IMG/VR virus record: IMGVR_UViG_3300044971_004534
From: a virus
Length of the DNA stretch: 64,000 nt
Direction: 5' to 3' (one strand)
How positions within the stretch are numbered: position 1 is the first letter of the stretch; each line of letters starts with the position of its first letter. Below, piece by piece: positions 12,795-40,841 of the stretch. Position numbers and translations under genes: made by a program. The notes under the pieces are model-generated. The model was not told the origin of the DNA. It saw only the letters and a list, made by a program, of their open reading frames with translations, and did no database searches.

Positions 12795-12980
12795 ATGAGA
12801 TGGGCAATTATTAATTTAGAAAATAACATAGTAGAAAATGTAATAATTTGGGATGGAAATGGTCAAATATATCCTTTTGACGCTGCTCAATTGATTCAAC
12901 TGCAAGAAGATGAGCGATGTGAAATGGGTTCTCTTTATGATCCGAATTCTTCTCCAAGATTTATAGAACAACAGGTATGA
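12795..12980 (+). CDS. small hypothetical protein (61 aa)
   Basis: SD GGAGG 7 nt upstream. ATGA overlap with the next glycine-rich gene. Confidence 0.65.
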   Translation: MRWAIINLENNIVENVIIWDGNGQIYPFDAAQLIQLQEDERCEMGSLYDPNSSPRFIEQQV

Positions 12981-16318: not shown

Positions 16319-16675
16319 GTGGAATATATATATCACATAGTTATTCCAAAAAATCAAGCAACTAGAGTAAATGATTGCTTTAGTAAACTTTGTAAAACTA
16401 AATCTAAACCTTTTATTTTAAATTTAGCAGCAAAAAGTGTTTATAAAGCCACGCATGTGGGTGCTTTTGGAATTTCTGAAGAAGAACTAAAGATATTTGA
16501 AGTTGTTCTTCAACTTGATAGTCCCGGTGTTTTTTGGTGGAAAGTATCTTCAAAAGATAGTCGCTTGGATGACTGTAATGATGCAGATTGTTTTGTGTAT
16601 TTAGGCGAAAAACTAGAATACAAGCAATTGTTTAAAAAAGCAGGCTTCATCTATTTGAATCAAGAAAATGAGTAA
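16319..16675 (+). CDS. hypothetical protein (118 aa, GTG start); sits where a small terminase would be expected
   Basis: Overlaps the terL start by 8 nt. No DNA-binding or small-terminase motif recognised, so the call rests on position only. Confidence 0.5.
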   Translation: MEYIYHIVIPKNQATRVNDCFSKLCKTKSKPFILNLAAKSVYKATHVGAFGISEEELKIFEVVLQLDSPGVFWWKVSSKDSRLDDCNDADCFVYLGEKLEYKQLFKKAGFIYLNQENE

Positions 16676-18539
16676 AGCAGGAAGACCAAAGAAAAAATCT
16701 GATCTTTTTTTTGACCTTGAAGGTCTTAAGGAAGCAGTCAAAAATGTTCCAGTGACAGCATCTGATGCTGGTCACGTTCCTAGTATTATTGAATTTATAG
16801 AGTCTGACAAGTATCTTGGTCTTCCTCATAGAAAGCCTACTTCAATTGACCTGTACCCATTTCAGCGCATCATGCTAAAAGCGTTTTATGCTGGGAGTAT
16901 AGGTAATCAAAATATTGGTCTCTCAGAAGAAGAGCTTGCTTTATGTAAAGAAAATAATTTTGAAGATGAAGACACAAGTGATATTTTTATAAAAAAAGAC
17001 AATGGTATAACAAAAAGTGAATTAGTTCTTGTATGGGGGCGCAGAAGCGGCAAAGACTTTATAGTTTCAATACTTGCTTGTTACGAGGCAGCTAAGCTTT
17101 TAGAATCTCCTGAAGGTGATCCTTACAAGCTATATAATTTAGGGTCAGGTGCTCCATTTACTATTTTGACTGTTGCAAATAGCTCTGCTCAGGCTCAAGT
17201 TCTTTTTAATGAAATAAAAGATAAGATTATCAATAGTCCATATTTCGCAGACAAAATTGTTGCTTCAGGCATTCTTGCAGACCAAATACATCTTCTAACA
17301 CCAGCTGATAAGGTAAAGAACGTTGAGCTCGCTGCTCGAGGACTTCCAACAAGTCCTGGGTCTGTTATTATCAGATGCGGTCACAGCAATTCTGACTCTC
17401 TCGCTGGTATATCTTGCTATTGTTTGCTGCTTGACGAAATTGGTTTGTACAAACAAACTGCTGGCAGTAGCGGTGGTGAAAGTATTTATAGAACGCTTGC
17501 ACCTGCAACTGCAACATATGTTCGCAAAGAAAAAAACATAGATCCTTATGGCAATGAGAAGCTTCAAGATGTGTATGATGGCAAAATAATATGCATTAGT
17601 TCTCCACGCGGTAAAGAGGGTGTGTTCTATGAGTTATATAGAAAAAGCTCTTCTGTATCTCATCGTGTTATGTGTAAATTGCCAACTTGGAAAGTAAATC
17701 CAAATCAAACAGTAGAGCTTTTGCGTGAAAAATTTGCTAACATGACTGAAGAAGAGTTTATGATGGAGTTTGGCGCAGAATTTAGCGGCACTGCTGGTCA
17801 AACATTCTTTACAAGAGATATGGTTGAAAGATCTTTTGGTAGTAGTATAAAGCTTAGGGATCATGGAGAGGGAGGCTTTAGCTATTTCTGTCATTTAGAT
17901 CCAGCAACATCTTCTCACAATTATGCATTATGTGTTTGTCACCGAGAGATGTTTATTAATCCACAAACAAATAAAACAGATTTTAAAATTAAAGTGGATC
18001 ATTTAAAATATTGGCAACCTAAAGAGGGTAAGCCAATATTAACAGAAGAAGTTGATAATTATATTATTGCATTAAGTAAAAGGTTCAATTTTGAACTTGT
18101 TACATTTGATCAGTGGAACTCTCAGCACAGTATTGATCATTTGAAAAAACATAGTGTTCCAGCAAAAATGACAAGGTTTACAAAAAGATATAAAATTATT
18201 ATATATGATAATTTATATGATTTATGTTCAGCAGGTCGTTTAGAAATCCCAGATCACGAGTTGCTAAAAAATGAAATGCTGTATTTGCAGCGAAGATATA
18301 CTCCTACTGGATATAGAGTTTTTGCTAAAAAAGACGGTCTAGTAAAGACTGATGACCTTGTGGATGCATTGGCTGGAGCTGCATACGCGTGTATGCATGA
18401 TAGTGTTGTAAGATTGCCTCAAGGAAGATTGGTTAGTTTATCAGTAAATCCAGTAGGAGAAGGAGTGGTTTTTAGGAGTATGTCGGGTGTGCCTATAGGT
18501 CATTCTCTTCAGCAACAAAAATGGAGCAAAAGGTTCTAA
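16668..18539 (+). CDS. terL: terminase large subunit
   Basis: Walker A-like VWGRRSGKDF, Walker B CYCLLLDEIGLY, and upstream Q-motif-like LYPFQ. The C-terminal RNase H-like nuclease part has FCHLDPATSSHNYALCVCH and KTDDLVDALAGAAY. At 623 aa the size is typical. Confidence 0.9.
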   Translation: MSKAGRPKKKSDLFFDLEGLKEAVKNVPVTASDAGHVPSIIEFIESDKYLGLPHRKPTSIDLYPFQRIMLKAFYAGSIGNQNIGLSEEELALCKENNFEDEDTSDIFIKKDNGITKSELVLVWGRRSGKDFIVSILACYEAAKLLESPEGDPYKLYNLGSGAPFTILTVANSSAQAQVLFNEIKDKIINSPYFADKIVASGILADQIHLLTPADKVKNVELAARGLPTSPGSVIIRCGHSNSDSLAGISCYCLLLDEIGLYKQTAGSSGGESIYRTLAPATATYVRKEKNIDPYGNEKLQDVYDGKIICISSPRGKEGVFYELYRKSSSVSHRVMCKLPTWKVNPNQTVELLREKFANMTEEEFMMEFGAEFSGTAGQTFFTRDMVERSFGSSIKLRDHGEGGFSYFCHLDPATSSHNYALCVCHREMFINPQTNKTDFKIKVDHLKYWQPKEGKPILTEEVDNYIIALSKRFNFELVTFDQWNSQHSIDHLKKHSVPAKMTRFTKRYKIIIYDNLYDLCSAGRLEIPDHELLKNEMLYLQRRYTPTGYRVFAKKDGLVKTDDLVDALAGAAYACMHDSVVRLPQGRLVSLSVNPVGEGVVFRSMSGVPIGHSLQQQKWSKRF

Positions 18540-23273: not shown

Positions 23274-23984
23274 ATGCAATTCTTTTCTAACAAAATTTAC
23301 GTTAACGGATCACAAAAGTCATTTCAAGATTTGATTGATGGAGTTAAGGGTAACTCTATGACAAAGACAGCTTCTGCCGCTGAAGCACCTGTGAAGGAAG
23401 CTGGTAAAGAGGCCATGATGGAAAAGACTACTAAGGGTGATAAAATGCCAAAGGAAGTTTTAGAGCACTTTAAGGGTAAGTCTGGAGCATCAGGCAAGTC
23501 TGGAAAGTCAGGTGAGGCCAAGAAGTCAGGCACATCTGGTAAGTCTGGAGCATCAGGCAAGTCTGGTCTAACTGCAGCTCAGAAAAAGCTTCCTGCTGCA
23601 CTTCAGCAAGCTATTCTTGATAAGAAAAAGGCAGAAACTGAAGATCAGGGTCTCAAAATTGCTAGTATCGAAAAGGTCAATGACAACGAAGTTGTTTTGA
23701 CATTAGCTACTGCTCATGAAGCTGGGTGGGCTCACGCAGAGACAAAGAGTGAAGACGGCGAAGAAGTTGTGATAGATGATTCTGAAGAAAGCAAGAGCGG
23801 TAAGAGCGGTAAGAGCGGTAAGAGCGGCAAGGAGTCTTGCTGGTCTGGCAAGATGGCTTCAGAGCAGCCTAAGTTTGTAAAAATCGCTAATCTTACTGAA
23901 AAGCAAAAATCCCATTTCCGCAAGTATTGGGACAACGTTTGGCCAAAGGATTTTATTGAAGCTCTTTTGTCTGTTCAAAACTAA
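23274..23984 (+). CDS. hypothetical (S-G-K)n repeat protein (236 aa)
   Basis: Strong SD (GGAGG) 9 nt upstream. Two blocks: GKSGASGKSGKSGEAKKSGTSGKSGASGKSG and SKSGKSGKSGKSGKE. Confidence 0.8.
   Translation: MQFFSNKIYVNGSQKSFQDLIDGVKGNSMTKTASAAEAPVKEAGKEAMMEKTTKGDKMPKEVLEHFKGKSGASGKSGKSGEAKKSGTSGKSGASGKSGLTAAQKKLPAALQQAILDKKKAETEDQGLKIASIEKVNDNEVVLTLATAHEAGWAHAETKSEDGEEVVIDDSEESKSGKSGKSGKSGKESCWSGKMASEQPKFVKIANLTEKQKSHFRKYWDNVWPKDFIEALLSVQN
23793..23828. repeat. tandem 9-nt repeat (AAGAGCGGY)x4 encoding KSG repeats; also a 29-nt direct repeat 23475-23503 = 23538-23566
   Basis: Read directly from the sequence. Confidence 0.9.
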
Positions 23985-25245: not shown

Positions 25246-26233
25246 ATTCAATTTATCTAAATTTGCACAAAAGCAGATAGAGATGACTTCTCCTCCTGTA
25301 GTTCAGGGGGCTGAAGAGTTTAGCGATTTGGAAATGACTAAGGAGCCACAGTCAGATGCTGGTTTGCTTATGTCTCCTGGTAAAGATATTGATACAGATA
25401 TCGAAACCATATCAGTTCCTGTGTTTGAGAATCATGTACAAATGTACGAAAAATTAAAATCTTTTTCATCTGGAGATATTAAGTCTTCAATGAATTCTGC
25501 ATGGAATGAATATTTTTCTCAATCTGTCGGGTCAACAGAAATAGCTGACGACTTTAAGGCTGGACTTTCTCAATTTTTTGAAGTTCCATCTGATTCAGAA
25601 GATGCAGTAGATATTGCTAACAGACTGTTTGATATGTACGCAAAAATACATCCACCAAAGAACGAGGAAAGTGAAATGGACATAGCTACCGCAAGTACAT
25701 TGCATGTTATGAAAATAGCTAAAGAAATTGCTGCTTCTCAAAAGAAGCAAAGTTCTTCTCAAACTTTTAATTTAACAAAGACTGCTCAGCATAAGAGTAT
25801 TATGCATAGTTCTATTATATCAGGCCCTAGTCAAACTTCTTTGAGTCCATTTAGTAGAGATATACAGAGTGGTCTTCATCTTATTGAACAAAATAAAGGT
25901 TTTGGATTAAAAATTGATGATGTTTTAGATATTGATTTTGAGGCAATATGGCGTGGTAACGTTATGGATAAGTATAATTCTCCATATCGAGACGAAGAAG
26001 GAAATTATGTTGGTGGTTACATTAACAGAAGATTTGAAGTAAATCGCAACATCCCAAAGGGTAACAATTTGCAATTGCTTCCAGGTACTCGCAGCCGTCC
26101 TTGGTTGCCTCAATATTCAACACTGGAGTCCAGAATGGAAGTTTTGAGAGGCAATGAGGACAAGCTTGTTAATCCAGCAACATTTAATAAATTGTCCATA
26201 GGTCCATTTAACTTAAAAAAAAAGAACAGTTGA
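25238..26233 (+). CDS. hypothetical protein (331 aa from ATG 25238; the ORF track starts at TTG 25226)
   Basis: GGAGA lies 5 nt upstream of ATG 25238. There is an 8-nt overlap with the upstream gene. Confidence 0.7.
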   Translation: MPKFNLSKFAQKQIEMTSPPVVQGAEEFSDLEMTKEPQSDAGLLMSPGKDIDTDIETISVPVFENHVQMYEKLKSFSSGDIKSSMNSAWNEYFSQSVGSTEIADDFKAGLSQFFEVPSDSEDAVDIANRLFDMYAKIHPPKNEESEMDIATASTLHVMKIAKEIAASQKKQSSSQTFNLTKTAQHKSIMHSSIISGPSQTSLSPFSRDIQSGLHLIEQNKGFGLKIDDVLDIDFEAIWRGNVMDKYNSPYRDEEGNYVGGYINRRFEVNRNIPKGNNLQLLPGTRSRPWLPQYSTLESRMEVLRGNEDKLVNPATFNKLSIGPFNLKKKNS

Positions 26234-26451
26234 GTCTTAAAACTGCTGCCGGTCAAGGGTCTTCTTCATTTAATAGAGCCCTAGACCGTGCTTTCTCTTT
26301 TATGAAACCCGATAAAGGTAATATATATTCTAGACAGAAAAAAATCTGTCCAGTATGTAAGTCTGACAATTCTGCTGATTCTTCTAAAAATCAGAATAAA
26401 TGCGTTAATTGCGGGTTTGACTTAGGTAAAGTTCAAGTAACAAGAGTGTAA
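26230..26451 (+). CDS. small zinc-ribbon protein (73 aa, TTG start)
   Basis: CPVC-x17-CVNC four-Cys ribbon. Sits immediately upstream of the portal gene. Confidence 0.5.
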   Translation: MSLKTAAGQGSSSFNRALDRAFSFMKPDKGNIYSRQKKICPVCKSDNSADSSKNQNKCVNCGFDLGKVQVTRV

Positions 26452-26456
26452 AATAA

Positions 26457-28739
26457 ATGGCAAAATCAAACGGTAAAGAACAGGAAATAAACAAGACTGC
26501 CTCCAATGAAGTTTTTGATGGACGCAAGTACGCTAACTCTGCAGCTGTATCTTTGCCTTTGACTAAAGCAGCTCAATATGTTGGAGGCAGCGCTAGTACC
26601 ATATTTACGCAGCCTATGTTTTTTAGTCCGCTGCATACTCCACAAAATTGGCAGATTGCCAGTAAGAGAAAAGAAGTTTACCAGTGGGCTAGATTTTATT
26701 ATGAAAACGAGCCAAAAGCAGCAGCAGGCATAGATTTTTATGCTGGCTTTCCAATGAATGGCTTTAATTTGGAATGCAAAGATAAAAAAGTACTAGCTTA
26801 TTTTGAGCATTTAACAGAAAAACTTAATCTTGAATATTGGTTAAGAAAAATTAGTCATGAGTATTTTTTACTCGGAGACGTTTTTGTATTTACTGAAATA
26901 GAGTGTCCTGTCTGTCGCGGTCTGGGCCATCTTCCCAACGGCAACATATGTAATCACCCAGATGGTACAATTAAGCGTTTGTTGATTTTAAATCCAGATT
27001 TTATTGAGGTGCAGAACACGCAGTTAGCAGATGAACCAACAGTTGCTCTTATTCCAGATGATGATTTAAAAAGAGTGGTCGCTCAGAAAAAACCCAAAAA
27101 TGTTTATGACCGCATTCCTGATTCGATCAAAGAGTACGTTTTATCAGGTAGGCCAATTCCTCTTAGTCCAAGATGCATAAGTCATATTAGACATAAGGGT
27201 TCTCCATACGGAACTTATGGAGAAAGTCTGTTGAGAAGATTGTTTACCATTATATCTTATAAAACAAAATTAATGACAGCTAACTGGATTATGGCTGAAA
27301 GGCATATATTGCCTGTTAGAGTTGTTAAGGTTGGAAACGCTGAACGTCCAGCTTCTGAATTTGATATTGCAGATGTTCAGGGTCAGCTTGCTGCAGTTGC
27401 AAACGATCCTAATTTAACTATTGTGACTCATCATGCATTTGAAATGGACTTTATTGGTGCTACTGGCAAAATTCATGACATATCCAATCAGTTAGAAATG
27501 ATTGGTAAAGAAATGCTTGATGGATTGATGTTGCCGCAAACTCTTCTTAATGGAGAAATGGCTGCATATAGTGCAGCAGCAGTTGGTGTTGAAACTTTGA
27601 TACGTAGACTTGAAACTTGGCGTATGGAACTTTCGTCTTGGGTTGAGAAAAATATATTTTTACCAGTCGCTCAGATGCAAGGTTTTGTTGACACTCAAAA
27701 GAGTAAGTTGGTAGGGGACACTGTATGGTTAACTCCCAAAATTAAGTGGAATGATTTGCGGTTACGAGACAATAGTCAGTATCTGCAAAGCTTAATGCAG
27801 TTGCATGATAAGGGCCTCATATCTACTCAAAAGCTTTTAACTGAATTTAACATTGATTTTGATCAAGAAGTTAATAGGCTTCGTGAAGAGCAGATTACTG
27901 CAGGTAAGGGCGGTCAGGTTCTTGGCGGTGCTGGAGATGCTGGCGGCGGCATGGGTGGTTTAGATTTAGGTCTTGGCGGACCTCCCGGTGGTGGCGGTGG
28001 GTTAGATCTTGGTCTTGGCGGCGGTGGCATGCCTCCTGGCCTTGCAGGGCCAGGTCCTGGCGGCGCACCTGGAGCAGCACCACCACCTGGTGGCGGAGCT
28101 CCTCCAGCTCCACCTATGGGGGCCATGGCTAGCGACGAAAATGATGACATGACAAAGGTTGCACAGCTTTCTCTAATGAATGATCCCAGTCAGCAATCTG
28201 TAGATCCATCCATGAGAGTCTACAAGAGAGGCAAGCAGCCAAAACAAAAAAAATCTGATGAACCAACAGTTGAAAATAAGCAAATATTTTTGACTAAACC
28301 AGAGCAGAAGCTTTTCAGCATCGTTAAGTCTCTTAATGTTCCATTGAGATTATTTGCTCAATATGAATTTAAGGTTCCAGGTGAGCAAAACGCATATCTA
28401 CTAGATTTTGCCTTCCCGGATATCATGCTAAACTTTGAAGCAGATGGAGATTTTTGGCATTCTGATGCCAGTGCCGTTGAGAGAGATAAGCAGAGAGACA
28501 TGAAGTTGGCGAGCATGGGGTGGCGTGTGGTAAGAATTAAAGAAAGTGCATTAAATACTAATGTTGAATTAGTTACTCAAATTATTGTGAATAATATTAA
28601 AGACACTATTGCTCAGCGTAAAGCTTTAATGGCCAAGCGTGCTAGTGTTAATGCAGAAGATAGTATTTACTATGAAGATGGAGATGAATTAAAGATTTCT
28701 TACCAAAATTTGATTTATGATAACAGTGACAATTCATAA
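26457..28739 (+). CDS. portal protein with C-terminal Gly/Pro linker and DUF559/Vsr-like endonuclease domain
   Basis: 760 aa. Sits directly upstream of the protease/scaffold, decoration and capsid genes. The N-terminal ~480 aa are portal-like in size and pattern (YQWARFYYENEPKAAAGIDFYAGFPMNGF...). The C-terminus YLLDFAFPDIMLNFEADGDFWHSDASAVERDKQRDMKLASMGWRVVRIKE matches the DUF559 layout. Confidence 0.75.
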   Translation: MAKSNGKEQEINKTASNEVFDGRKYANSAAVSLPLTKAAQYVGGSASTIFTQPMFFSPLHTPQNWQIASKRKEVYQWARFYYENEPKAAAGIDFYAGFPMNGFNLECKDKKVLAYFEHLTEKLNLEYWLRKISHEYFLLGDVFVFTEIECPVCRGLGHLPNGNICNHPDGTIKRLLILNPDFIEVQNTQLADEPTVALIPDDDLKRVVAQKKPKNVYDRIPDSIKEYVLSGRPIPLSPRCISHIRHKGSPYGTYGESLLRRLFTIISYKTKLMTANWIMAERHILPVRVVKVGNAERPASEFDIADVQGQLAAVANDPNLTIVTHHAFEMDFIGATGKIHDISNQLEMIGKEMLDGLMLPQTLLNGEMAAYSAAAVGVETLIRRLETWRMELSSWVEKNIFLPVAQMQGFVDTQKSKLVGDTVWLTPKIKWNDLRLRDNSQYLQSLMQLHDKGLISTQKLLTEFNIDFDQEVNRLREEQITAGKGGQVLGGAGDAGGGMGGLDLGLGGPPGGGGGLDLGLGGGGMPPGLAGPGPGGAPGAAPPPGGGAPPAPPMGAMASDENDDMTKVAQLSLMNDPSQQSVDPSMRVYKRGKQPKQKKSDEPTVENKQIFLTKPEQKLFSIVKSLNVPLRLFAQYEFKVPGEQNAYLLDFAFPDIMLNFEADGDFWHSDASAVERDKQRDMKLASMGWRVVRIKESALNTNVELVTQIIVNNIKDTIAQRKALMAKRASVNAEDSIYYEDGDELKISYQNLIYDNSDNS

Positions 28740-28803: not shown

Positions 28804-29217
28804 ATGATCAAATCTGCTGCTAAAAGAATAAAAGATAGAAACATTAATTGGCGTGAGGCTTATTCCGAACGTACAGCACCTTTACACAAGCGTTATACTG
28901 AGCAGGTAGGTCCCGGTTCATATCGCAGATGGGAAGGTCATGACTATACTACAAATAGTGACTATTATGTTGTTTGTAGTCCTGCGCAGACTAAGTATGG
29001 CGAAAAGGCATATTTTGCCGGTATTAAAAAGTTACCACCTCTTGCTGTTAGAGATGTAGTAAAAACATATTCTCCTTATGGAAAATATTTTAACAACATG
29101 TCTTCTGCTTTATCTTTTTTAAAAGAAAAGTATGGCATACCATGGCCAAAAGGTCAAATTAATTACACCACAGACCATATTCAAAATATTGAGATACCTA
29201 GATTTGTAAAGGCATAA
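28804..29217 (+). CDS. hypothetical protein (137 aa)
   Basis: ORF lies between the portal and the giant head gene. No motif recognised. Confidence 0.7.
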   Translation: MIKSAAKRIKDRNINWREAYSERTAPLHKRYTEQVGPGSYRRWEGHDYTTNSDYYVVCSPAQTKYGEKAYFAGIKKLPPLAVRDVVKTYSPYGKYFNNMSSALSFLKEKYGIPWPKGQINYTTDHIQNIEIPRFVKA

Positions 29218-29219
29218 AA

Positions 29220-32200
29220 ATGGATAAATTTACAATAACAACTGAAAGACAAATAGAAGCTCTTAACGTCCCATCTAATTGGGATGAAATAAATCTATCT
29301 CCTATTACCAAATTTGCTTCAAAAGAAAAATCATTTGAGGATCACGTAAAAGCAATAGATCTTGGTGGTTTTGATATTTTAGCAGCTATTAAAGATAATC
29401 CAGATCATTTGTTTGTAAAAGTTTTTGCAATTAAAAAAGATGAAGTTAATGACAACGGAGACTATTTTAGTGAAAATGAACTGAAAAAAGCTGCTAAAAC
29501 TTTCATAGGTGTTCCTGTATTTGTAAATCATCAAAACGATGACGTAGAAAAGGCACGTGGTAAAGTTGTTCATGCTTGGTGGGATGAAGATCGTGGAGGT
29601 ATTTATACAATTAATATGGTTGACAAGGTTGCTTATCCACGCTTGGCCAGAGGCATTGAGGCTGGATACGTAACTGGAAGCAGTATGGGTTGCAGTGTTA
29701 AGTACAGTTGCTGTTCTGTTTGTCACACTCGTGCTGCTAATGCTAAGGAATACTGTTCTCATATTAAAGAGCGTAAAAAGAAAAATTTTACTGGTGAGCA
29801 TGAGTGCGAATATCATAAAAGTGCAAATGCTGGAGATGAACCATGTCCTGTTTGTGGATGTGAAAAGGGCAAGAAGAAATTAAACAAATATGCAAGTCAG
29901 CAGATTTTTGAACATAATTACGGTGTTAAATTCATAGAAGACAGCTTTGTTGTTAATCCTGCGTGTCATGATTGTCTTGTAAGTGACATTATAAATCCAA
30001 CTGGGTTGCTTAAAAAGGTAGCTGATCTTAGAGAAACTCTTGCTAAAATTGGCACATCAATGGATAGCGATTCTTCTTTTGGCATGGAATGTTCTTCTGG
30101 CCAGTGTAGTCTTCACAAGGCTGCTGGAAAGCAAGAAATTAATGAATTAAATGATGCCATGAACCAGCTTGAAAGAGTTGCGCGTTCGATGATGGCTCAA
30201 AAAAGCAAGGTAAGTTTAGAATATGTGTCAGACATAGTTAAAGTTTGTTCTGATATTCAGAAAATATCAGATGAATTAGTTGAAATGGGCTATGCAGTTT
30301 TGCCAAGTCCTACTGAGTCTCAGATAGCATACGGTACAAATGCTCCTGCAAGTCCTATGACTAAGCCTCAGTCTGCTGTGCAAATGCCAGTTTCTGCTAT
30401 GCCTCAGCCTTCTTCTGCTGCTGTGCCATCAGTTCAGCCAAGTATGGCTATGCCAGCACAAACGGCAGCGCCCATGTTAAAATCTGTGCCTATGGCAGCT
30501 AATCCTCAGATCCAAGAATTTGGAGATGAGGTTGGAAGGGTAACAAAGCCAAATTTTATTCCAGTAAAAGCAGATTCCGCAAAGGATTTTATTAAAATAT
30601 CTAATAGTATAACAAATAGGCTAAATAGTCTAGCTAATCGTATATACATTAACGGAGAATTTATGTCAGAAAATTCAGGATACAAGTTCACACAAGGTGA
30701 TGATACAATAGTTATTTCTTCAGACAATGATGGAGAAACTCATATAGCACATCTTAAGGGTGATCGCTTAATGAAATGGTCCAGCATAGATTCTTTCGAT
30801 GCAGATACTCAAAACATGATTAATCATGATCCAAAACAGGCAGCTCGTAAAATTTTAAATTCATACTTGAACAATACTTCAGAGGAGTCAATTACATCCA
30901 TGGAAAGCTCAAATCAAAACAAAGTTGCACAGGCACGTACCGGTGACGCACATGAAGTCACTACAGAGGCACAGCTCTCTGGCGTAAAGGGAATTCATGC
31001 TCGCAAGGGAGAGGCTCCCACTGCCACCACTGAAAGTAAGGAGCAGCTCGGTGCTGCTAAGTCTTACAGTGATGTTGGCGGAACTTCAGCCACTCCTCGT
31101 CAAGGTACTGCATACGAAACAGTTGTTGAAGCTACTTTGAACTCCAAGACCGGAGGATTCATGGCTCGTTGGGGATCTTTCCCTGAAGTAATTACAGAAG
31201 CTCAATGGAACGACATTAGTAGAGAGGTCTTTGCAAACATTCCATCTGATTGGACTTCTGTTGCCAAACAGGGTCAGCTTGAAATGTTGCAGAAGACATT
31301 TAGTTGGACTGAGCCAACCGTAACCACTGAAGGTCAGCTTGCTGGCAAGTCCATGAAGAAGGCTTCTGCTCAAGATCTTATTAAGCAGGCACAGGGAGCA
31401 ATCGCTGATGCAATGGCTTTCTATGGAGTTGGTGCCGAAGACATTCAAAACACAGTTGATTTTATCACCTCTGACTCTTCAAGACAAAATAAAGCAAAGA
31501 TTGTTGTTGCCATGAATGCAGCTCCATGGGCTGTTGAGTCTCGTAAGGTAAACAATAGTCGTCTTGCAAATTTCTCTAAGGTTGCATCTGAAGTGTATGG
31601 AGTTGAGCCCGTTGATGCTGTGCTTGCTGCAGTTGGTGATAATCTAGAATCTTCTTCAGCTGAAGAAGTTCTTTCTGCTCTTGCTTTCGTTGCTAACAAC
31701 AAGTTGGCAATGCAGCAAGCAGAAGAATTAGCAGTTGAAAGATATGAAAACGCAACATCTGAATCTTCAGAAGATGATTCCGACATGTTCCGCAAGGCAT
31801 TTAGTGAAATGTCCTTGCCAGAGGACGGAATCATCAAGGTTTGCATGAGTGCAGAAGACGATCTTGGCATGGAGGTTTCCTCTGGCAAAGACTTCATCGA
31901 AGCAGTGCACAAGTTTGCTCAGACCATGGTGAACGAAAACCTTGGTCAAAACGTAGACATTATTCCAGTCGCAGTTGATGTTGATGAGGACAATGGTCTT
32001 GTTGAAGCAACTTGCAAAATTGCTTCCAAGGTTACCGATCAGGAAAAGGCAGCTTTTGAAAAGTGGGCTTCTTCTGTCCCTGCAGAAAAGGTAGTTGCTG
32101 AGGAGTCATCTCAAACTAAGAGAGCTTCTTTGCTTGCTGATTTAGACAAGCTCGAAAAGCAGGCTCAGCTTGCTGGTGGTCAAATGCCAGCTGGATTGAA

Positions 32201-34991
32201 TCCTGCAGGTATGGGCATGGGCATGCAGTTGCCTGGTGGAGCTCCTCCAGCTGGTGCTCCAGGAGTTGAGGCTTTAACTGCAGGCGCTCCTGTTGATCCC
32301 GCAGCTGCTGCTCCAATGGGTGCAGATCCTTTGGCTGGTGGTGATATGGGCGGTGAGGCAGAAGAAAGTAAGCCAAAGCCACCAGGCGCAGTTTGCGTTG
32401 TCTGCGGTGGACAGGATGTTGATGTTCTTGGCGGTAAGTCCAAGTGCAATGGTCCTGGATGCGGCTTAAATTATACAATCAAGATTGTACCTGATGCATC
32501 TTTACTTGACAAGATCACAGATGGTGATGTTGATCAAGAAGACGTTACTGCAAGTCCAGAGTCTCCAGAAAAGGGATTGGGTGGCGAAGGTGCAATGTCT
32601 CCTGCTCCAGACATGGGTATGGGCGCTCCAGCTCCTGGCGGCATGCCAGGAATGGGTGGAATGGCAGTTGCGGCTTCTACCAAAATCAGCGCAGATACCA
32701 TGAAGAAGTTTGCTTCTAAGGGCGAGCTTGGCAGTATCAGTCCAATCAGTGGTGAACGTAACACCGTCAAGTTAGATAAGGAGCACTGGCAGTGCCTTGA
32801 TAGTGGTCAAATCTATAAGGTCAGACTTGCTGCAAAGACTGACGATCCAAAGCATGTTTATGCTCAATGGGAATGGGCTCCTGTCGCTAAGCAAGCCTCT
32901 TGCACTCCATGTGAGCGCAAGAAGAATGCAATAATCAAGGCTCTTTCTGCAGTTGGTATTTCAGAGGACTCTTTTGATGGAATGTCAATGCAGGATAAGG
33001 CAGCTGCTCTTAACACCATCAATGATAAGGGTCTTCTTGGAACTATCAAAGAAGCATCTTCTGATGACGTTAAGGGATTCTTCAAGCAAGCATTTACTGT
33101 TCATGGTGAATTCCCAATGTCAAGATGCATTGAAAAGCTTGCAAACAGATACGGTGAGAATGCGCTCGCACTAAGTGGTCCATGTGAGGGTAAGAATCTC
33201 GCAGAATGTGTTTGCGGATCTTTGTCTGACGAAAACGTCTATACAACTAAGCTTGCTAACAAGATCGCATCTGCTTGGTCAGAGCGTGATGCAATGCATG
33301 AGTGCGTAGAAGATTTTGTCAGAAGTGGTCTAGTTTTGAATAAGGCTGCTCAGGCATGTGAAGATCTTAAGTCTAAGTACGTGTCTGCAGAAGAAATTTA
33401 TGCAGAAACTCTTTCTGAAGATCAGTCCATCAAGTCTGCTATGGGTGATGGAGAAATGGATGAAGAAGATCCATTTGACTCTGAAGATTTCTCTGATTCT
33501 CCTGAGGGAGACGAAGGTGAAATGCCAGAGATGTCTGGTATGGATTCTGGCGAGGATATGGAAGAAGATCTTGACATGGATGAGCCAACTGAAGAAGAAA
33601 TGCCAGAAGGCTACCGCGACGAATCAGATGATGAAGGTTTCGATTTAGATATTGAATTCGAAAACACTGATTCGTCTGATATGGGTGAGGATGCAGATCT
33701 TGATGTTGAAATAGAAATGCCAGAATCAGAAGAAGGCATGGAGCCAGAATCTGAAGAGTCAGAAATGTCCGAAATGCCAGAACAAGAGGAGGGCGAAATG
33801 GATACAGCAGAAGATACCGAAGGTCCATCTATGATGGAAGAGTCTGATATGATGAAGGAAGCTCCAAAGAGCGCTTCTCAGAATGATGAGATAGAGCGCC
33901 TTGAAAAGGAAGCTCATTCTCTTCGTCGTGGACGTATAGTCGGTGTCAATAAGTTAAACATTGATATTGACTCTATACGTGCTGCTCTTAACAAGCAAGC
34001 CAAGTCTGGCAAGCTCGAACAAACAAGTGCACAAGACGTTGTCGGTGCAGTTGCAAACGGCAAGCCACACAAGGATAGCACTCAAGAGGGCTTCTCAGCC
34101 GAATCTCCCGATGTTCCAAGCAATGGCGGTAAGCCATTGGCTGCTGAGCACGGAGAGGGATTCAAGGAAAGTGCTCCAGAAATTCCATACGGTGATGGTC
34201 AGTTTGAAGGCGAGCCAAACAAGGGTGAAATGCAAAATGCAATCACTGGCGGACAGGCTGGTCAAGGCAAGGATCACACTGGAAAGTATCGCAAGGCTTC
34301 CAACATGTTCGATCAAGCTTTGTCTAAGTTAGCAAAAGACATGGGCTTGTCCGTTCACACCGTGCAGGACGATGCTGATCTAGGTCAGATAGCCAACGGT
34401 AAGCCACACAAGGACAGCACTCAAGAAGGTTTCTCTGCCGAAACTCCTGATGTTCCAGAAAATGGAGGCAAGCCTCTTTCTTCTGAGAAGGGTGAGGGCT
34501 TCAAGGTAGATTCTCCAAGTATCCCAGCCGGAGATGGTCAGCTTGGCCATGAATCTGAGCTTGGACTTGAGGGCGAAAAGCAAAATCAAATCACCGGTGG
34601 TCAAAACGGCCAGGGTGGTGCACAAAACTATAAATCTAAGAAGGCCAGTAGTGCCAACAAAGAGGTTGCAATTAAGCTTGCTGCCAAAATGGTAGAAAAC
34701 GGCATAATCAAAGCCGACCAGATGCCAGCAAAGCTCGCGGAGTTGCAGAGATACGAGGTATCTCAGCTTCGTGACCTCGAAAAGGCGATGTTTAATCGCC
34801 CAAGCGCTACCAAGGGTCTGAAGGTTGCATCGAGTGGAGTTGAGCAGCCACTCGTAATCAACGAAGTAAGCAGTCACAAAAATGCTTCGTCTGATCTGAA
34901 AGGTAAAATTGCTTCTCTATTCCGTCTCCAACAGCAGGTCGAGATGGCAGATGAGAGCGAGGCTGCTAAGTTACGTAATGCATTCAAATGA
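29220..34991 (+). CDS. giant head protein (1923 aa): N-terminal prohead serine protease-like domain fused to a scaffold/internal-protein-like low-complexity region
   Basis: The N-terminus DEVNDNGDYFSENELKKAAKTFIGVPVFVNHQND...RLARGIEAGYVTGSSMGCSV resembles the His/Ser motifs of HK97 gp4 / T4 gp21-type prohead proteases. It is followed by Cys clusters, P/A/M-rich and G/P/M-rich linkers, a very acidic block, and a 113-aa tandem duplication. It occupies the position of protease plus scaffold. Confidence 0.6.
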   Translation: MDKFTITTERQIEALNVPSNWDEINLSPITKFASKEKSFEDHVKAIDLGGFDILAAIKDNPDHLFVKVFAIKKDEVNDNGDYFSENELKKAAKTFIGVPVFVNHQNDDVEKARGKVVHAWWDEDRGGIYTINMVDKVAYPRLARGIEAGYVTGSSMGCSVKYSCCSVCHTRAANAKEYCSHIKERKKKNFTGEHECEYHKSANAGDEPCPVCGCEKGKKKLNKYASQQIFEHNYGVKFIEDSFVVNPACHDCLVSDIINPTGLLKKVADLRETLAKIGTSMDSDSSFGMECSSGQCSLHKAAGKQEINELNDAMNQLERVARSMMAQKSKVSLEYVSDIVKVCSDIQKISDELVEMGYAVLPSPTESQIAYGTNAPASPMTKPQSAVQMPVSAMPQPSSAAVPSVQPSMAMPAQTAAPMLKSVPMAANPQIQEFGDEVGRVTKPNFIPVKADSAKDFIKISNSITNRLNSLANRIYINGEFMSENSGYKFTQGDDTIVISSDNDGETHIAHLKGDRLMKWSSIDSFDADTQNMINHDPKQAARKILNSYLNNTSEESITSMESSNQNKVAQARTGDAHEVTTEAQLSGVKGIHARKGEAPTATTESKEQLGAAKSYSDVGGTSATPRQGTAYETVVEATLNSKTGGFMARWGSFPEVITEAQWNDISREVFANIPSDWTSVAKQGQLEMLQKTFSWTEPTVTTEGQLAGKSMKKASAQDLIKQAQGAIADAMAFYGVGAEDIQNTVDFITSDSSRQNKAKIVVAMNAAPWAVESRKVNNSRLANFSKVASEVYGVEPVDAVLAAVGDNLESSSAEEVLSALAFVANNKLAMQQAEELAVERYENATSESSEDDSDMFRKAFSEMSLPEDGIIKVCMSAEDDLGMEVSSGKDFIEAVHKFAQTMVNENLGQNVDIIPVAVDVDEDNGLVEATCKIASKVTDQEKAAFEKWASSVPAEKVVAEESSQTKRASLLADLDKLEKQAQLAGGQMPAGLNPAGMGMGMQLPGGAPPAGAPGVEALTAGAPVDPAAAAPMGADPLAGGDMGGEAEESKPKPPGAVCVVCGGQDVDVLGGKSKCNGPGCGLNYTIKIVPDASLLDKITDGDVDQEDVTASPESPEKGLGGEGAMSPAPDMGMGAPAPGGMPGMGGMAVAASTKISADTMKKFASKGELGSISPISGERNTVKLDKEHWQCLDSGQIYKVRLAAKTDDPKHVYAQWEWAPVAKQASCTPCERKKNAIIKALSAVGISEDSFDGMSMQDKAAALNTINDKGLLGTIKEASSDDVKGFFKQAFTVHGEFPMSRCIEKLANRYGENALALSGPCEGKNLAECVCGSLSDENVYTTKLANKIASAWSERDAMHECVEDFVRSGLVLNKAAQACEDLKSKYVSAEEIYAETLSEDQSIKSAMGDGEMDEEDPFDSEDFSDSPEGDEGEMPEMSGMDSGEDMEEDLDMDEPTEEEMPEGYRDESDDEGFDLDIEFENTDSSDMGEDADLDVEIEMPESEEGMEPESEESEMSEMPEQEEGEMDTAEDTEGPSMMEESDMMKEAPKSASQNDEIERLEKEAHSLRRGRIVGVNKLNIDIDSIRAALNKQAKSGKLEQTSAQDVVGAVANGKPHKDSTQEGFSAESPDVPSNGGKPLAAEHGEGFKESAPEIPYGDGQFEGEPNKGEMQNAITGGQAGQGKDHTGKYRKASNMFDQALSKLAKDMGLSVHTVQDDADLGQIANGKPHKDSTQEGFSAETPDVPENGGKPLSSEKGEGFKVDSPSIPAGDGQLGHESELGLEGEKQNQITGGQNGQGGAQNYKSKKASSANKEVAIKLAAKMVENGIIKADQMPAKLAELQRYEVSQLRDLEKAMFNRPSATKGLKVASSGVEQPLVINEVSSHKNASSDLKGKIASLFRLQQQVEMADESEAAKLRNAFK
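34053..34625. repeat. diverged tandem duplication, period 339 nt (113 aa)
   Basis: ANGKPHKDSTQEGFSAE(S/T)PDVP(S/E)NGGKPL...GEGFK...P.GDGQ...ITGGQ.GQG occurs twice, with copies starting at 34053 and 34392. Confidence 0.85.
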
Positions 34992-35591: not shown

Positions 35592-35655
35592 TTTTATATT
35601 GGTATTCTTGTTGAGATCAATATAACAAAATAAAACTTTGAAAGGATATACAAAC

Positions 35656-36528
35656 ATGTCACTAAATAAAGATGGTTTGACCTATGATGAAAAGGAGGCA
35701 GTGATTGCCCAAGCCCTCGCAACCGAGGAAGGCCGCACTGCTCTCGCACAGGCCATGGTGGAGCCAATCCGCCGTTCACTAGAGTATCAGGCTGTAGGCC
35801 GCAAGCTTCTCATGGTAGATGAGCTCCCACAAGGCGCTCTTCCCCGCTATGAGCGCGATGTTGCCTCTACAGCAACTGTTATTGCCCGTCAGGGTGCAGT
35901 TCCCGATCAGATTCAGGAAGGCGAGGAAGTCCTCGTTCCAACTTTTGAGATCGCTGCTCACCCAACAATTCGTTTGAGCGAGATCAAGGCACGTCGCTTC
36001 TATATCGTTGACCGTGCTCAGATCAAGGCAAAGGAAGCCATTCAGAAGGAAGAAGATCGCAATATCTTCAGCGCTCTGATTGCTGCTGCTGATGCTCGCA
36101 ATGATCAAGTCGTTGGTAACACCGGTGACTTGACCACTGATTCGCTCAACGTTGCATACCGTTTGATTGAGACTCACGATCTTGTCGCAAGCAAGGTTGT
36201 TGCTCACCCCCTTCAGTATGCTCGTTTCCGCGTGTTTGGTAAGACCTTCTATGATGAGGCTACCACTCGTGAAATCCTCACCACCGGTCTCTATGGTCAC
36301 CTCTGGACTGCTGACATCCACGTCAGCTCCCAGCTTGACGCTCAGACCGTATTGGTGTGCGCTTCTCCCGACACTGTCGGTGCCTTCCCCATCCGCCAGG
36401 ACATCACAGTCCTTCCAGCAGATGATCCAAAGAAGCTCCGTCTTGGTTGGGTAATCTACGAAGAAGTCGGCATCGTTGTTATGAACGATTACGCCATCTC
36501 GAAGATCGAAGTTTACCGTGCATCCTAA
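35656..36528 (+). CDS. major capsid protein (HK97-fold candidate), 290 aa
   Basis: It occupies the last position of the head module. AAGGA lies 9 nt upstream of ATG 35656 (the ORF track starts at TTG 35638). GC and C-ending codon use are markedly elevated. The strongest terminator in the window follows it. The sequence pattern is capsid/encapsulin-like (RKLLMVDELPQGALPRYERD..., VGAFPIRQDITVLPADD). Confidence 0.75.
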   Translation: MSLNKDGLTYDEKEAVIAQALATEEGRTALAQAMVEPIRRSLEYQAVGRKLLMVDELPQGALPRYERDVASTATVIARQGAVPDQIQEGEEVLVPTFEIAAHPTIRLSEIKARRFYIVDRAQIKAKEAIQKEEDRNIFSALIAAADARNDQVVGNTGDLTTDSLNVAYRLIETHDLVASKVVAHPLQYARFRVFGKTFYDEATTREILTTGLYGHLWTADIHVSSQLDAQTVLVCASPDTVGAFPIRQDITVLPADDPKKLRLGWVIYEEVGIVVMNDYAISKIEVYRAS

Positions 36529-36615: not shown

Positions 36616-38184
36616 ATGAATTGGTATAAAGTTGCTGACAAAATATCTAAATCTATTCAGTTAACTCCTGAAGAGCATGCTATATTTAATGTAATTAAGG
36701 CTGGCAGAGATGCATACGCTTCAGGTGTTCAATTGAGGATCGCTGGAGGATGGGTTAGGGACAGGTTGCTTGGCAAAGTATCTGACGACATAGATATCGC
36801 TGTTAGCGGAGGTGATGGCAACTCTGTGGCAGAAGCCGTTAGACGTTATGATATTGAACAAAATGCAGGCAAGCACACAAAAGATCCTTACGCAGTAAGT
36901 TTAGAAAAAACTCAACCGGGTGAAAAGAAAACAAGTGCTGGACTAAAAGTAGGCGCTATAGATATTAATGGAATTAAGGTAGAATTTGTGCCTATGCGCA
37001 CAGAGATTTATAATCCTACCAGTAGAGTTCCAGAAATATCTGCAACAAATGATCCTACAGAAGACGTAAAAAGAAGGGATTTAACAATTAATGCAATTTA
37101 TTATAATATTGATACTGGTAAAATCGAAGACTATGTAGGCGGGGTAAAAGATTTAGAAAATGGTATTTTAAGAACGCCAGTTGATCCTGTAGTAACTTTA
37201 AAAGAAGATCCGTTAAGAGCATTAAGGGCATTGCGTTTTTTATCTCAAATGTATGGCTTTGAGCTTGATGAACAGTTGGTTGAAGCATTGAAGCATCCAG
37301 AAGTTCATAAGTCTTATCTTGATAAAGTCGCTCCAGAGCGTGCAAGAAAAGAACTTGAAAAGCTAGTTCTTGGTAAGCGTCCTGCTGATGCTATAAGGCA
37401 TTTCTTTTCAAGTGGTCTGTATTTACCAGTCTTTCATCATAAAAAACTTTATGGATTTAAGCCTATTCATATGGATCAAAACAACCCTCATCATCAGTAT
37501 AATTTGCTTGAGCATACTGTTCATGTAGTAAAAAATTTAAATAATATGCTCATTGATGCTGGAGTTTCAGACAAAGAAAGAATGGTTGCTGTTATGGCAG
37601 CTATATTCCATGATTTTGGTAAAATGGACCCAAATATTGTGCGTCCAAGTAAAAGCAACCCTAATGCTTCTTCTTATCCAGGTCATGAGAATGTCTCTGC
37701 TGAACTTGCTGTAGAAATACTGAAGAGACTTGGTTTTGGAAATGAAAGAGAATTAATATCTAAAGTTGTTCAAGAACATATGCGTCCTCATGGAGAAATG
37801 CAAAGTCCAAAATCTATTGGTAAATTTTTACGAGATTTTGAGTCGATGAGTATTGGCGATGATTCCAAAACAAGATTGTGGTGGTTGACTTTTATGCATG
37901 CGATAGCAGATTCTATGAGTAAAGGTGGAGTTGATTATGATGAGGAAGTCAAGGGGAAGCATGATCAAATCAAGACAATCGAAAAGTTTATTGAAGAAAG
38001 ATCTAAGGTGGGCACTAAGCCGCTTTTGAATGGAAAAGAAATTATGGATTTGTTTCCTGATAAAAATCCTAAAACTGGATTTATAAATGTAATGCAAAAT
38101 GCTTTAGCTGAAGCTCAAGATAGTGGTGAAATAAAAGACAAGAATGAAGCAAAAAATTTCTTGCTAAAACAGTTTTCTCAATAA
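36616..38184 (+). CDS. cca: CCA-adding enzyme / tRNA nucleotidyltransferase (class II polymerase-beta head + HD domain)
   Basis: Motifs: RIAGGWVRDRLLGKVSDDIDIAV, RRDLTINAIYYN, DPLRALRALRF, and the HD motif IFHDFGK. Confidence 0.9.
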   Translation: MNWYKVADKISKSIQLTPEEHAIFNVIKAGRDAYASGVQLRIAGGWVRDRLLGKVSDDIDIAVSGGDGNSVAEAVRRYDIEQNAGKHTKDPYAVSLEKTQPGEKKTSAGLKVGAIDINGIKVEFVPMRTEIYNPTSRVPEISATNDPTEDVKRRDLTINAIYYNIDTGKIEDYVGGVKDLENGILRTPVDPVVTLKEDPLRALRALRFLSQMYGFELDEQLVEALKHPEVHKSYLDKVAPERARKELEKLVLGKRPADAIRHFFSSGLYLPVFHHKKLYGFKPIHMDQNNPHHQYNLLEHTVHVVKNLNNMLIDAGVSDKERMVAVMAAIFHDFGKMDPNIVRPSKSNPNASSYPGHENVSAELAVEILKRLGFGNERELISKVVQEHMRPHGEMQSPKSIGKFLRDFESMSIGDDSKTRLWWLTFMHAIADSMSKGGVDYDEEVKGKHDQIKTIEKFIEERSKVGTKPLLNGKEIMDLFPDKNPKTGFINVMQNALAEAQDSGEIKDKNEAKNFLLKQFSQ

Positions 38185-39482: not shown

Positions 39483-40841
39483 ATGAAGATTCAGAATCGC
39501 ACAGGTCATTCTGTCTATATTTCTGATATTGATAGAAATTTTTCTCCAACTGAAATAGTTAATTTTTATGAATTATCAAAACAAGATTTATTAAAAAGTA
39601 CTTCACTTAGAAAATTAATACGTTCTGGAGCTTTTTATCCCGTTGAATGGGATGTCAATTCAACTCTTGAATCTTCTCTTCAAAAAGAAAGTGAGCAATT
39701 TTATCAGGCTATGGTAAAAGAAAAAAATAAAGAAAGCAACGGAATATTATTAAGAGGCCAGTTTTTAGATTACAGTGGATATGGCAAGGTGAATAGAAAT
39801 CTTGCTATATGCTTAAAAAAACGAGGGGTAAATATTTCCGTTAATGCTATTGATCATGCTCACCCAAGGCTAATAGGAAATGATCTAATAATAGGATCAA
39901 GTTTTTCTTATACTCACAGTACAGTTTCTGATGTTGTGATAGACAGTATTGTTCCGTCTTTTGATACTGCTCGTGGTAAGAAGAAATCAATTTTATACAC
40001 CACTGTTGAATCTTATACAATACCACAAAACTTTTCAGATATATTTAAAAAGTATGATGAGATATGGACTACCTCTAATTTTTGCAAGAGTGTAATTTCT
40101 CAACATTTTAGCGGTCCTATATCGGTAGTGCCTGGAATCGTAGATTCTCAGACTTATTGCATTGATGGAAATAGGGCAGATATACGTAATCAGTCTAAGA
40201 GCTTTAAATTTATTAGTGTCTTTAATTGGAACTACAGAAAAGGACCTGATGCATTGTTAAAAGCTTACTGTAAGGCATTTTCTAATAGTGATGATGTTTC
40301 TTTAATACTTGTCTGTCGCAAAAAAAGGATATCTGGTCCAGCTAGTGGTGTTAAAGACGAAGTTGAAAAAACTATTAATGATTTAAATTTAAAAAATCCA
40401 CCTCACATTATGCGTGTTACTAAAGAATTAAATGAAGATGGCATAGCCAGTCTTTATAGGGCTTGTAATGCCTTTGTACTTCCCTCTAGGGGCGAAGGTT
40501 ACGGCCTGCCCTACTTGGAGGCAAGCCTTTGTGGTCTGCCTGTGATTGGCACTAATGTAAGTGCAGTTGCAGACATTTTAAACACAAAAAATAGTTTATT
40601 ATTAGATATAGACCGTCTTTCAAAGGTTCCTCAAAATGCAACTGGTGCTTATTTTTGGGACGATCATATTATGGCAGATTTAACTTCTGAATCTTTTATT
40701 AATAGTCTTGCGGATGGTATGAAAGATATGTATATTCATTATAAAAAATATGTCGAAAAAAATAAAGATCTTCAAAAATTTGCTATACAGCATGCATCTG
40801 CGGATAAAGTTTTTAGCATAATAAAGGAAAGAATAAATTGA
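39483..40841 (+). CDS. GT4-type (GT-B) glycosyltransferase with an extra N-terminal ~60-aa module
   Basis: E-x7-E region VLPSRGEGYGLPYLEASLCGLPVIGTNVSAVADIL. The size and layout are those of GT4 enzymes. Confidence 0.85.
   Translation: MKIQNRTGHSVYISDIDRNFSPTEIVNFYELSKQDLLKSTSLRKLIRSGAFYPVEWDVNSTLESSLQKESEQFYQAMVKEKNKESNGILLRGQFLDYSGYGKVNRNLAICLKKRGVNISVNAIDHAHPRLIGNDLIIGSSFSYTHSTVSDVVIDSIVPSFDTARGKKKSILYTTVESYTIPQNFSDIFKKYDEIWTTSNFCKSVISQHFSGPISVVPGIVDSQTYCIDGNRADIRNQSKSFKFISVFNWNYRKGPDALLKAYCKAFSNSDDVSLILVCRKKRISGPASGVKDEVEKTINDLNLKNPPHIMRVTKELNEDGIASLYRACNAFVLPSRGEGYGLPYLEASLCGLPVIGTNVSAVADILNTKNSLLLDIDRLSKVPQNATGAYFWDDHIMADLTSESFINSLADGMKDMYIHYKKYVEKNKDLQKFAIQHASADKVFSIIKERIN

Follow-up and report, generated by a model that had tools for sequence, protein, structure and literature searches.

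What would a nuclease be doing on the portal protein of a phage? This question is raised by a stretch of viral DNA of 64,000 nucleotides (IMG/VR record IMGVR_UViG_3300044971_004534; "the window" below means this whole stretch), in which an open reading frame (ORF) at positions 26457..28739 of the plus strand appears to encode a portal with a nuclease domain at its C-terminus. An earlier reading of the bare sequence, here called the original prediction, had proposed one uninterrupted ORF of 760 amino acids, in which a portal is followed by a Gly/Pro linker and a DUF559/Vsr-like nuclease domain of the PD-(D/E)xK superfamily. The ORF is indeed a single stop-free frame from ATG to stop, and the proposed order of domains is backed by sequence profiles, structure prediction and fold search. 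We regard the architecture (portal, disordered leash, basic motif, DUF559/Vsr-like nuclease domain) and its conservation as near-certain; a 760-codon ORF carrying two profile-significant domains cannot be a product of chance. The parts of the gene are the following.

26457..28739, plus strand: portal-nuclease fusion ORF, 760 amino acids plus stop, listed as one ORF
26457..26648, plus strand: disordered N-terminal segment, residues 1-64 (predicted local distance difference test, pLDDT, below 50 in the full-length model)
26649..27911, plus strand: portal fold domain, residues 65-485 (PHROG 16240, Pfam Portal_Mu, Foldseek)
26904..26957, plus strand: C-x2-C...C-x-H knuckle, residues 150-167, probably zinc-binding (conserved in the clade)
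27912..28214, plus strand: disordered Gly/Pro/Ala/Met-rich leash, residues 486-586 (pLDDT below 50)
28215..28253, plus strand: basic junction motif RVYKRGKQPKQKK, residues 587-599 (conserved among relatives)
28290..28649, plus strand: DUF559/Vsr-like (EDxHD-type) nuclease domain, residues 612-731 (Pfam PF04480, AlphaFold2, Foldseek)
28650..28736, plus strand: variable C-terminal tail, residues 732-760, possibly a small beta element (predicted strands)

Judged by profiles and a structure model, residues 65-485 are a tailed-phage portal domain, much as had been supposed for residues ~1-480. The PHROG portal family 16240 matches residues 69-469 (E-value 2e-44), Pfam Portal_Mu (PF06074) scores 28.8 bits against a cut-off of 23.9, and the best match among GenBank phages is the portal protein gp14 of phage G (31% identity over residues 37-479). 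A full-length AlphaFold2 model, built from 39 homologues, is confident over residues 65-485 (pLDDT about 85-95). With the portal part, Foldseek found 132 matches in the Protein Data Bank (PDB) at E ≤ 1e-3; all 50 among the matches listed are portal or connector structures, including those of Pakpunavirus P7-1, Bas63, HFTV1, E217, lambda, HK97 and T4. In the full-length model the last helix (residues 468-485) comes after a long helix (residues 372-408), and beyond residue 485 the chain is disordered; from the portal fold we infer that this last helix belongs to the crown. The C-x2-C...C-x-H cluster that had been seen inside the portal part is present at residues 150-167. It is conserved through the clade of relatives described below and is an insertion relative to the portal of phage G. 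One subclade has replaced all of the knuckle cysteines together (e.g., DSPDTRGE...THADG), as expected of a dispensable structural zinc site.

The DUF559 motif lies where it had been placed (LTKPEQ starts at L612, nucleotide 28290) and passes the Pfam threshold: DUF559 (PF04480) scores 32.8 bits with the whole protein and 36.4 bits with the isolated domain, the cut-off being 20.6. The AlphaFold2 model of residues 585-760 has a mean pLDDT of 89.8 and, compared with known structures by Foldseek, shows a Vsr-like fold, so that the expected PD-(D/E)xK-like fold was found. In the PDB, the folds closest to it are those of the I-Bth0305I catalytic domain, PvuRts1I, Vsr and the DUF559 structure 3hrl; the top one, 3r3p (I-Bth0305I), has a template modelling (TM) score of 0.83 on the target at 26% identity, and the Foldseek probability is 1.00 for 3r3p, 4oq2, 1vsr, 1cw0 and 3hrl. 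A profile search of PDB sequences returns the same list. The C-terminal tail (residues 732-760) forms strands in the domain-only model, has low confidence in the full-length model and is variable among relatives. In composition, the nuclease-coding part is like the rest of the gene. The active-site residues were mapped with the published description of I-Bth0305I and Vsr (PMC3239194), the register being read from the W-H and G-W landmarks, as follows.

E616: E170 of I-Bth0305I, E25 of Vsr
D650: D196 of I-Bth0305I, D51 of Vsr
E661: the extra acidic residue of the I-Bth0305I family, at the position of F62 in Vsr
D663: N208 of I-Bth0305I, at the position of H64 in Vsr
W667: W68 of Vsr (I-Bth0305I equivalent not mapped)
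H668: H213 of I-Bth0305I, H69 of Vsr
D677: D222 of I-Bth0305I, D97 of Vsr

Across 116 homologues, conservation reaches at least 95% for each residue of this predicted active site, and likewise for T613, Q635, R680, D681, G688, W689 and R693. As no predicted metal-binding or general-base position is lost in the sequence, the nuclease domain is apparently catalytically competent. Fold and catalytic core are those of E. coli Vsr (1vsr, 1cw0) and of bacterial DUF559 proteins (3hrl). Nevertheless, the domain is not Vsr proper: the score for TIGR00632 is 18.1 bits against the NCBIfam cut-off of 97.85, Asp665 stands (on our reading of the alignment) where Vsr has Cys66, the structural zinc site of Vsr was not found, and there is no mismatch-repair context. 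With I-Bth0305I and the other EDxHD homing endonucleases (3r3p) the domain shares the active-site set E, D, E, H, D plus a conserved Trp. These homing enzymes possess N-terminal NUMOD or helix-turn-helix (HTH) modules and are found sporadically, in introns and inteins, whereas the domain studied here is borne by a portal and fixed in its clade; neither Pfam nor PHROG revealed a NUMOD/HTH DNA-recognition domain in the protein, in which portal and disordered linker precede the nuclease. Furthermore, DUF559 is known from the anti-phage proteins Hhe and ProA, where it makes up the C-terminal region.

Could the fusion be an artefact of assembly or annotation, i.e. a portal gene and a free-standing nuclease gene that were run together through a sequencing error within the GC-rich linker? 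A few database relatives (P0168, P0208) do stop within the linker, but these short forms are low-coverage contigs that end in out-of-frame junk. Instead of falling into two genes, the same 760-amino-acid protein recurs, identical, on at least 18 contigs from independent NCBI, JGI, ENA and Logan samples (contigs of up to 301 kb; one member of the cluster is on a 406-kb contig). The end of the portal and the start of the nuclease share one stop-free frame in 75 of 75 IMG/VR loci with a detected nuclease, and the leashes of the relatives differ in length and sequence, yet always stay in frame. These identical copies and stop-free loci, together with the retention of the domain in 230 of 230 homologues (see below), rule out a frameshift or missed stop in the linker, and we consider an artefact hardly conceivable. 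A programmed frameshift leading to a short portal was looked for in ORF codons ~467-633, and no slippery heptamer is present there within the linker. The sole slippery heptamer in these codons is a lineage-specific A-run at 28247. The junction motif of this lineage only contains a run of eight A (KQKK codons, window 28240-28255), a potential slippage site.

How widespread the fusion is was assessed by an exhaustive HMMER search with residues 1-480 (1545 cluster representatives at E ≤ 1e-3); these and word-indexed sets were pooled, and each protein was scored with a profile of the nuclease domain. Among homologues complete at the C-terminus, the domain is present in all those whose portal identity is 35% or more (230/230) and in none of those below 35% (0/11), which settles for the first group the question, left by the original prediction, of whether relatives have the extension. 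PF04480 was found in all 120 best word-indexed matches, and every one of the 73 IMG/VR loci with at least 900 nucleotides beyond the portal domain carries the nuclease domain. The contigs that carry it are large (487-502 kb in Tara Oceans, up to 548 kb in IMG/VR), and GenBank phage records contain no close relative. Among the best 50 fold matches in BFVD, none is named a portal, one of them being an unnamed entry of 683 amino acids. The source is an uncultivated giant phage, and the fusion defines a deep environmental clade. Its proteins are currently named "very-short-patch-repair endonuclease" (JGI) or "phage portal protein family protein" (NCBI); the JGI label hides the portal gene of the clade from marker-based surveys. 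In agreement with the earlier remark that no portal with such a fusion had been described, a full-text literature search that covered jumbo-phage comparative genomics, the phage G genome, a 2026 jumbo-phage review and the Mar_Mega_1 paper retrieved no description of a portal-DUF559 fusion.

The outgroup suggests the order in which the protein was put together. Phage G (Lysinibacillus/Bacillus) has a homologous portal (gp14) in a gene neighbourhood of similar logic, with a Gly/Pro-rich disordered tail of ~130 amino acids; unlike the protein studied here, gp14, which was detected in virions (PMC12484599), has neither the nuclease domain nor the C-x2-C...C-x-H knuckle. Several relatives of 550-560 amino acids likewise end in a Gly/Ala/Pro-rich tail, and LR745208 has neither a Gly/Pro-rich tail nor a nuclease domain. 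Since phage G and the 550-560-amino-acid relatives possess a Gly-rich tail without nuclease, the sequences suggest that the disordered tail came first and that the nuclease was added to its end once. Two other scenarios were discarded. Polymorphic cargo, i.e. outgroup portals with other enzymes at the same place, is ruled out, as the outgroup tails are helical or low-complexity. It was also considered that phage G might encode a separate homologue among its head genes and package it; this was rejected, as the candidate (ps604/gp22) is an endolysin.

The leash is maintained in composition rather than in sequence. The original prediction had described a Gly/Pro/Met stretch of ~75 residues, which is real and GC-rich and starts at residue 486, but is longer than was thought: residues 485-605 are disordered in the full-length model, and 40-residue windows with at least 70% G/P/A/M span residues 485-572. 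At 27900-28100 the GC content reaches 0.665, against about 0.37 before, and thereafter falls back to the local level. In sampled relatives, the equivalent of residues 481-608 is 93-128 amino acids long with 46-85% G/P/A/M, its sequence being unconserved. The basic junction motif at residues 587-599 follows the consensus K-[IV]-[YF]-K-[KR]-G-K-x-P-K, and its G592 is conserved in at least 95% of the relatives. No second copy of the motif was found among the plus-strand ORFs of at least 100 amino acids in the window. Two ORFs of 72-78 amino acids run antisense to the linker (window 27895-28150, minus strand); they are a Pro/Gly/Arg-rich mirror of the coding sequence and most likely not genes.

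Is the nuclease a long-standing part of this protein or a passenger? Pairwise identities of the portal and nuclease parts are strongly correlated (Pearson 0.87, 86 intein-free proteins). The proportions of nonsynonymous (pN) and synonymous (pS) differences were computed against the closest relative (L014), for which synonymous sites are near saturation; pS is 0.81 and pN 0.067 in the nuclease region (pN/pS about 0.08), 0.71 and 0.035 in the portal region, and 0.59 and 0.185 in the leash (pN/pS about 0.3). The low pN relative to pS indicates strong purifying selection on portal and nuclease and weaker selection on the leash. Inteins provide another kind of evidence. At least nine relatives have an intein exactly within the catalytic E-x-D-G motif, so that their nuclease is split there (...GVGVE / C...intein...HN / CDGxxWH, slashes marking the splits), and in one of the nuclease-split relatives Intein_splicing and LAGLIDADG_3 are above the Pfam threshold. 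Since inteins are generally known to be kept at conserved sites on which the function of important proteins depends, the insertion within E-x-D-G independently marks this motif as functional. The portal gene of the clade is heavily invaded by inteins in general, with up to about five per gene at about six sites; hot spots lie near query residues ~78-100, ~150, ~325-337, ~365-372 and ~660. The proteins of these relatives (P0121-P0236) reach 3003 amino acids (P0165; P0169 has 2602), with up to six matched portal segments. The window's own copy of the portal-nuclease gene is free of inteins.

These data bear on the possibility that the domain is a domesticated or still selfish homing-type endonuclease, i.e. 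an EDxHD domain that was fused to the portal, cuts portal-region alleles or co-infecting relatives, and persists through gene drive or interference competition and not through a service to the virion. The best structural and profile matches, the I-Bth0305I domain and phage homing-endonuclease families, would suit such an origin, as would the status of the clade's portal gene as a hot spot for selfish elements (inteins). Yet the domain lacks a sporadic presence/absence pattern (230/230), has no NUMOD or HTH DNA-recognition module, co-diverges with the portal and matches the rest of the gene in composition, and its catalytic residues are still present at divergences by which a selfish endonuclease, once fixed, should have decayed. 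The lack of presence/absence polymorphism, of a recognition module and of decay, together with the co-divergence, makes a recent or selfish insertion unlikely, and we regard this explanation as decidedly improbable. Of the earlier idea of a mobile endonuclease fused in frame, a recent or selfish event does not stand up to the 230/230 retention, the correlation of 0.87 and the purifying selection, but the ancestry does find support in the fold: as the nearest structural relatives are phage proteins of the homing-endonuclease type, descent of the domain from a phage homing endonuclease is plausible on the model.

Where, then, would the nuclease act? Portals are dodecameric rings of established stoichiometry, and in solved portals the C-terminal crown faces the capsid interior. 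Because portal C-termini point into the capsid, 12 nuclease domains should lie inside the head, next to the inner opening of the DNA channel. The ~100-125 residues of the leash, at about 0.36 nm each, would measure 35-45 nm when stretched. The original prediction of twelve tethered domains at the packaging vertex thus holds as far as their number is concerned, which follows from portal stoichiometry, but they would be placed inside the head and not on the terminase side. For the question of function, the neighbouring head genes have to be considered as well.

16668..18539, plus strand: large terminase TerL, 8 kb upstream of the portal (PHROG TerL families cover residues 109-579)
28804..29217, plus strand: conserved 137-amino-acid ORF, candidate nuclease partner, directly downstream of the fusion
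29220..34991, plus strand: 1923-amino-acid protein with N-terminal head-maturation-protease region (PHROG 18299 over residues 62-192)
35638..36528, plus strand: major capsid protein (PHROG 2522, E-value 1e-63)

On the 3' side of the portal, the order is ~137-amino-acid ORF, 1923-amino-acid protein, 189-amino-acid ORF and major capsid protein, and the gene order of this head module is kept in distant relatives. Wherever an IMG/VR locus leaves room for it, the 137-amino-acid ORF follows the fusion, with one exception among 70 (69/70); in distant clade members it is 46-51% identical and its start overlaps the portal stop. No such ORF is present near the portals of phage G or LR745208. It had no family match in Pfam, PHROG or NCBIfam, and its sole PDB match is weak and unrelated (E = 0.036). 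The ORF may encode a protein that regulates or inhibits the nuclease, or simply be a clade-specific head gene. The 1923-amino-acid protein also has a weak Peptidase_S78_2 match. It contains long low-complexity parts, among them a G/P/A/M-rich stretch (about residues 980-1165) that resembles the portal leash, as well as highly acidic runs and a duplicated segment of ~60 amino acids (GKPHKDSTQEGFSAE...); in distant relatives the same position is occupied by a protein of 1830-1930 amino acids. A G/P/A/M-rich stretch is found near the C-terminus (about residues 250-300) of a tail-fibre-assembly-like protein of 312 amino acids too (window 12977-13915, plus strand), so this composition recurs in several virion-related proteins.

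TerL was identified by its PHROG matches and by its motifs, as it gave no Pfam match and no PDB sequence match. Its translation shows HLDPA, FDQW and TDDLVDAL, which we take to be the usual catalytic motifs of an RNase-H-type nuclease. A replacement of a lost terminase nuclease by the portal nuclease is unlikely, because TerL retains family homology and its own nuclease motifs (D-P-A, D-Q-W, T-D-D-x-x-D-A). Some other genes of the region may be mentioned. Directly upstream of the portal is an ORF of 73 amino acids with two C-x2-C pairs (zinc-ribbon-like; window 26230-26451, plus strand), and small ORFs of 68-109 amino acids occupy this position in relatives. A low-complexity protein of 236 amino acids with repeated (S/T)GKSG units is encoded in the head-gene region (window 23274-23984, plus strand). 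Genes for a tRNA nucleotidyltransferase-like (36616-38184, plus strand) and a glycosyltransferase-like protein (39483-40841, plus strand) adjoin the capsid gene; the latter could bear on modification of DNA or of the virion.

The explanation that we favour, tentatively and with less than even confidence, is that the fusion is a loading device: the nuclease would be a cargo that is pre-loaded, released and delivered with the genome. As a part of the portal, the nuclease would enter the head in a fixed dose, with 12 nuclease domains on leashes of ~30-45 nm in each procapsid. In the lack of a recognition module, the "specificity" of the nuclease would be its location, and with location as the only specificity the packaged genome must be protected somehow; it might be spared through substrate specificity, modification of the phage DNA, or inhibition by the 137-amino-acid neighbour. 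Near the basic junction, the nuclease would then be freed by the head maturation protease, whose gene is the second one downstream, and the freed enzyme would leave with the genome at infection and cut host or rival DNA before phage genes are expressed. This proposal is consistent with the role of DUF559 nucleases in the anti-phage proteins Hhe and ProA and with the possible protease and inhibitor encoded nearby, and the model suits the interior location, as the crown helix ends at residue 485 and a disordered chain follows. Several points weigh against it. The junction motif, considered as a possible protease site that head proteins might share, is absent from the other head proteins of the window. 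Delivered weapons are usually variable and swapped, whereas the domain type here is invariant in 230 of 230 homologues and co-diverges with the portal, which would suit a core morphogenetic enzyme better. Moreover, 12 active nucleases beside dense DNA would require a protection mechanism that is so far postulated.

Such a core enzyme is indeed conceivable. The 12 nucleases would stay tethered within the head and act on phage DNA passing the channel: they could trim or capture the first-entering end, nick against torsion in a genome of 400-550 kb, or remove lesions, and would be a functional analogue of other nucleases at the portal vertex. We regard this as a close rival of the cargo, only slightly less likely and likewise below even odds. 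Retention without exception, co-divergence and low pN/pS are what a core morphogenesis gene should show, and the intein in the active site fits as well, since inteins are generally known to favour conserved sites of essential proteins. T4 endonuclease VII, which binds the portal gp20, is a precedent. A further one is T4 gp4, a head-completion nuclease with a TnsA-like restriction endonuclease fold (PMC7824862). The conserved W667, the equivalent of the wedge tryptophan of Vsr (PMC3239194), would suit a structure-specific nickase that leaves intact duplex uncut. The two T4 proteins are, like the domain studied here, nucleases at the portal vertex during head morphogenesis; they differ from it in being separate polypeptides of different folds or subfamilies on the outer side of the portal, with no covalent C-terminal fusion. 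As a single duplex fits the portal, branched obstacles would never reach an interior enzyme; the packaging cuts can be assigned to TerL, which has nuclease motifs of its own; no specific reaction inside the head is known that would call for such an enzyme; and giant phages of the outgroup, e.g. phage G, do without the domain. The computed evidence does not separate delivery as a cargo from tethered action during packaging, which correspond to the ejected nuclease and the packaging-associated cutting named in the original prediction. In a related formulation, which we think unlikely, the portal itself would be the enzyme, a gated nuclease or nickase at the inner channel face that is essential for handling genomes of 400-550 kb, e.g. 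by torsion-relieving nicks or processing of the leading end, with the 137-amino-acid neighbour as its regulator.

The domain might also have no catalytic function and serve as a DNA clamp or structural element that binds DNA or a head protein and anchors the genome end or plugs the channel, its conserved acidic residues being used for metal-mediated binding instead of cleavage. The position inferred for it at the inner channel mouth, the conserved basic arm ahead of it and the ancestral Gly/Pro tail, which relatives without nuclease have as well, would be in line with this, but the full catalytic set, including the general-base histidine, is conserved to at least 95%, and inactivated nuclease folds normally lose such residues. 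We attach a small probability to such a role.

Precedents for a cargo are head-internal proteins that are delivered and fusions of MuF (SPP1 gp7-like) with toxins, the latter being head-internal portal-associated proteins with a C-terminal enzymatic domain that were proposed to be packaged and delivered with DNA (PMC3482391). In these fusions, MuF and not the portal is the carrier, and immunity genes accompany the toxin domains, which are polymorphic. The protein studied here gave no MuF match; its C-terminal domain is single and invariant, and the tails of the outgroup are non-enzymatic. Portals with a C-terminal appendage and enzymes loaded into heads are thus known kinds of things; the nuclease fusion itself is apparently new and, as a feature, well supported.

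Portals usually count as passive, if dynamic, channels, with the packaging enzymes assigned to the terminase. That a widespread environmental clade should, as its sequences indicate, have fixed a portal to which 12 apparently active nucleases are covalently attached is unexpected. It bears on the packaging and delivery of very large genomes and on the import of pre-made enzymes by giant phages, and the module of leash and small nuclease could represent a natural way of getting cargo into capsids. If the portal itself proved to be the enzyme, the packaging machine of tailed phages would have a second catalytic activity, borne by the portal.

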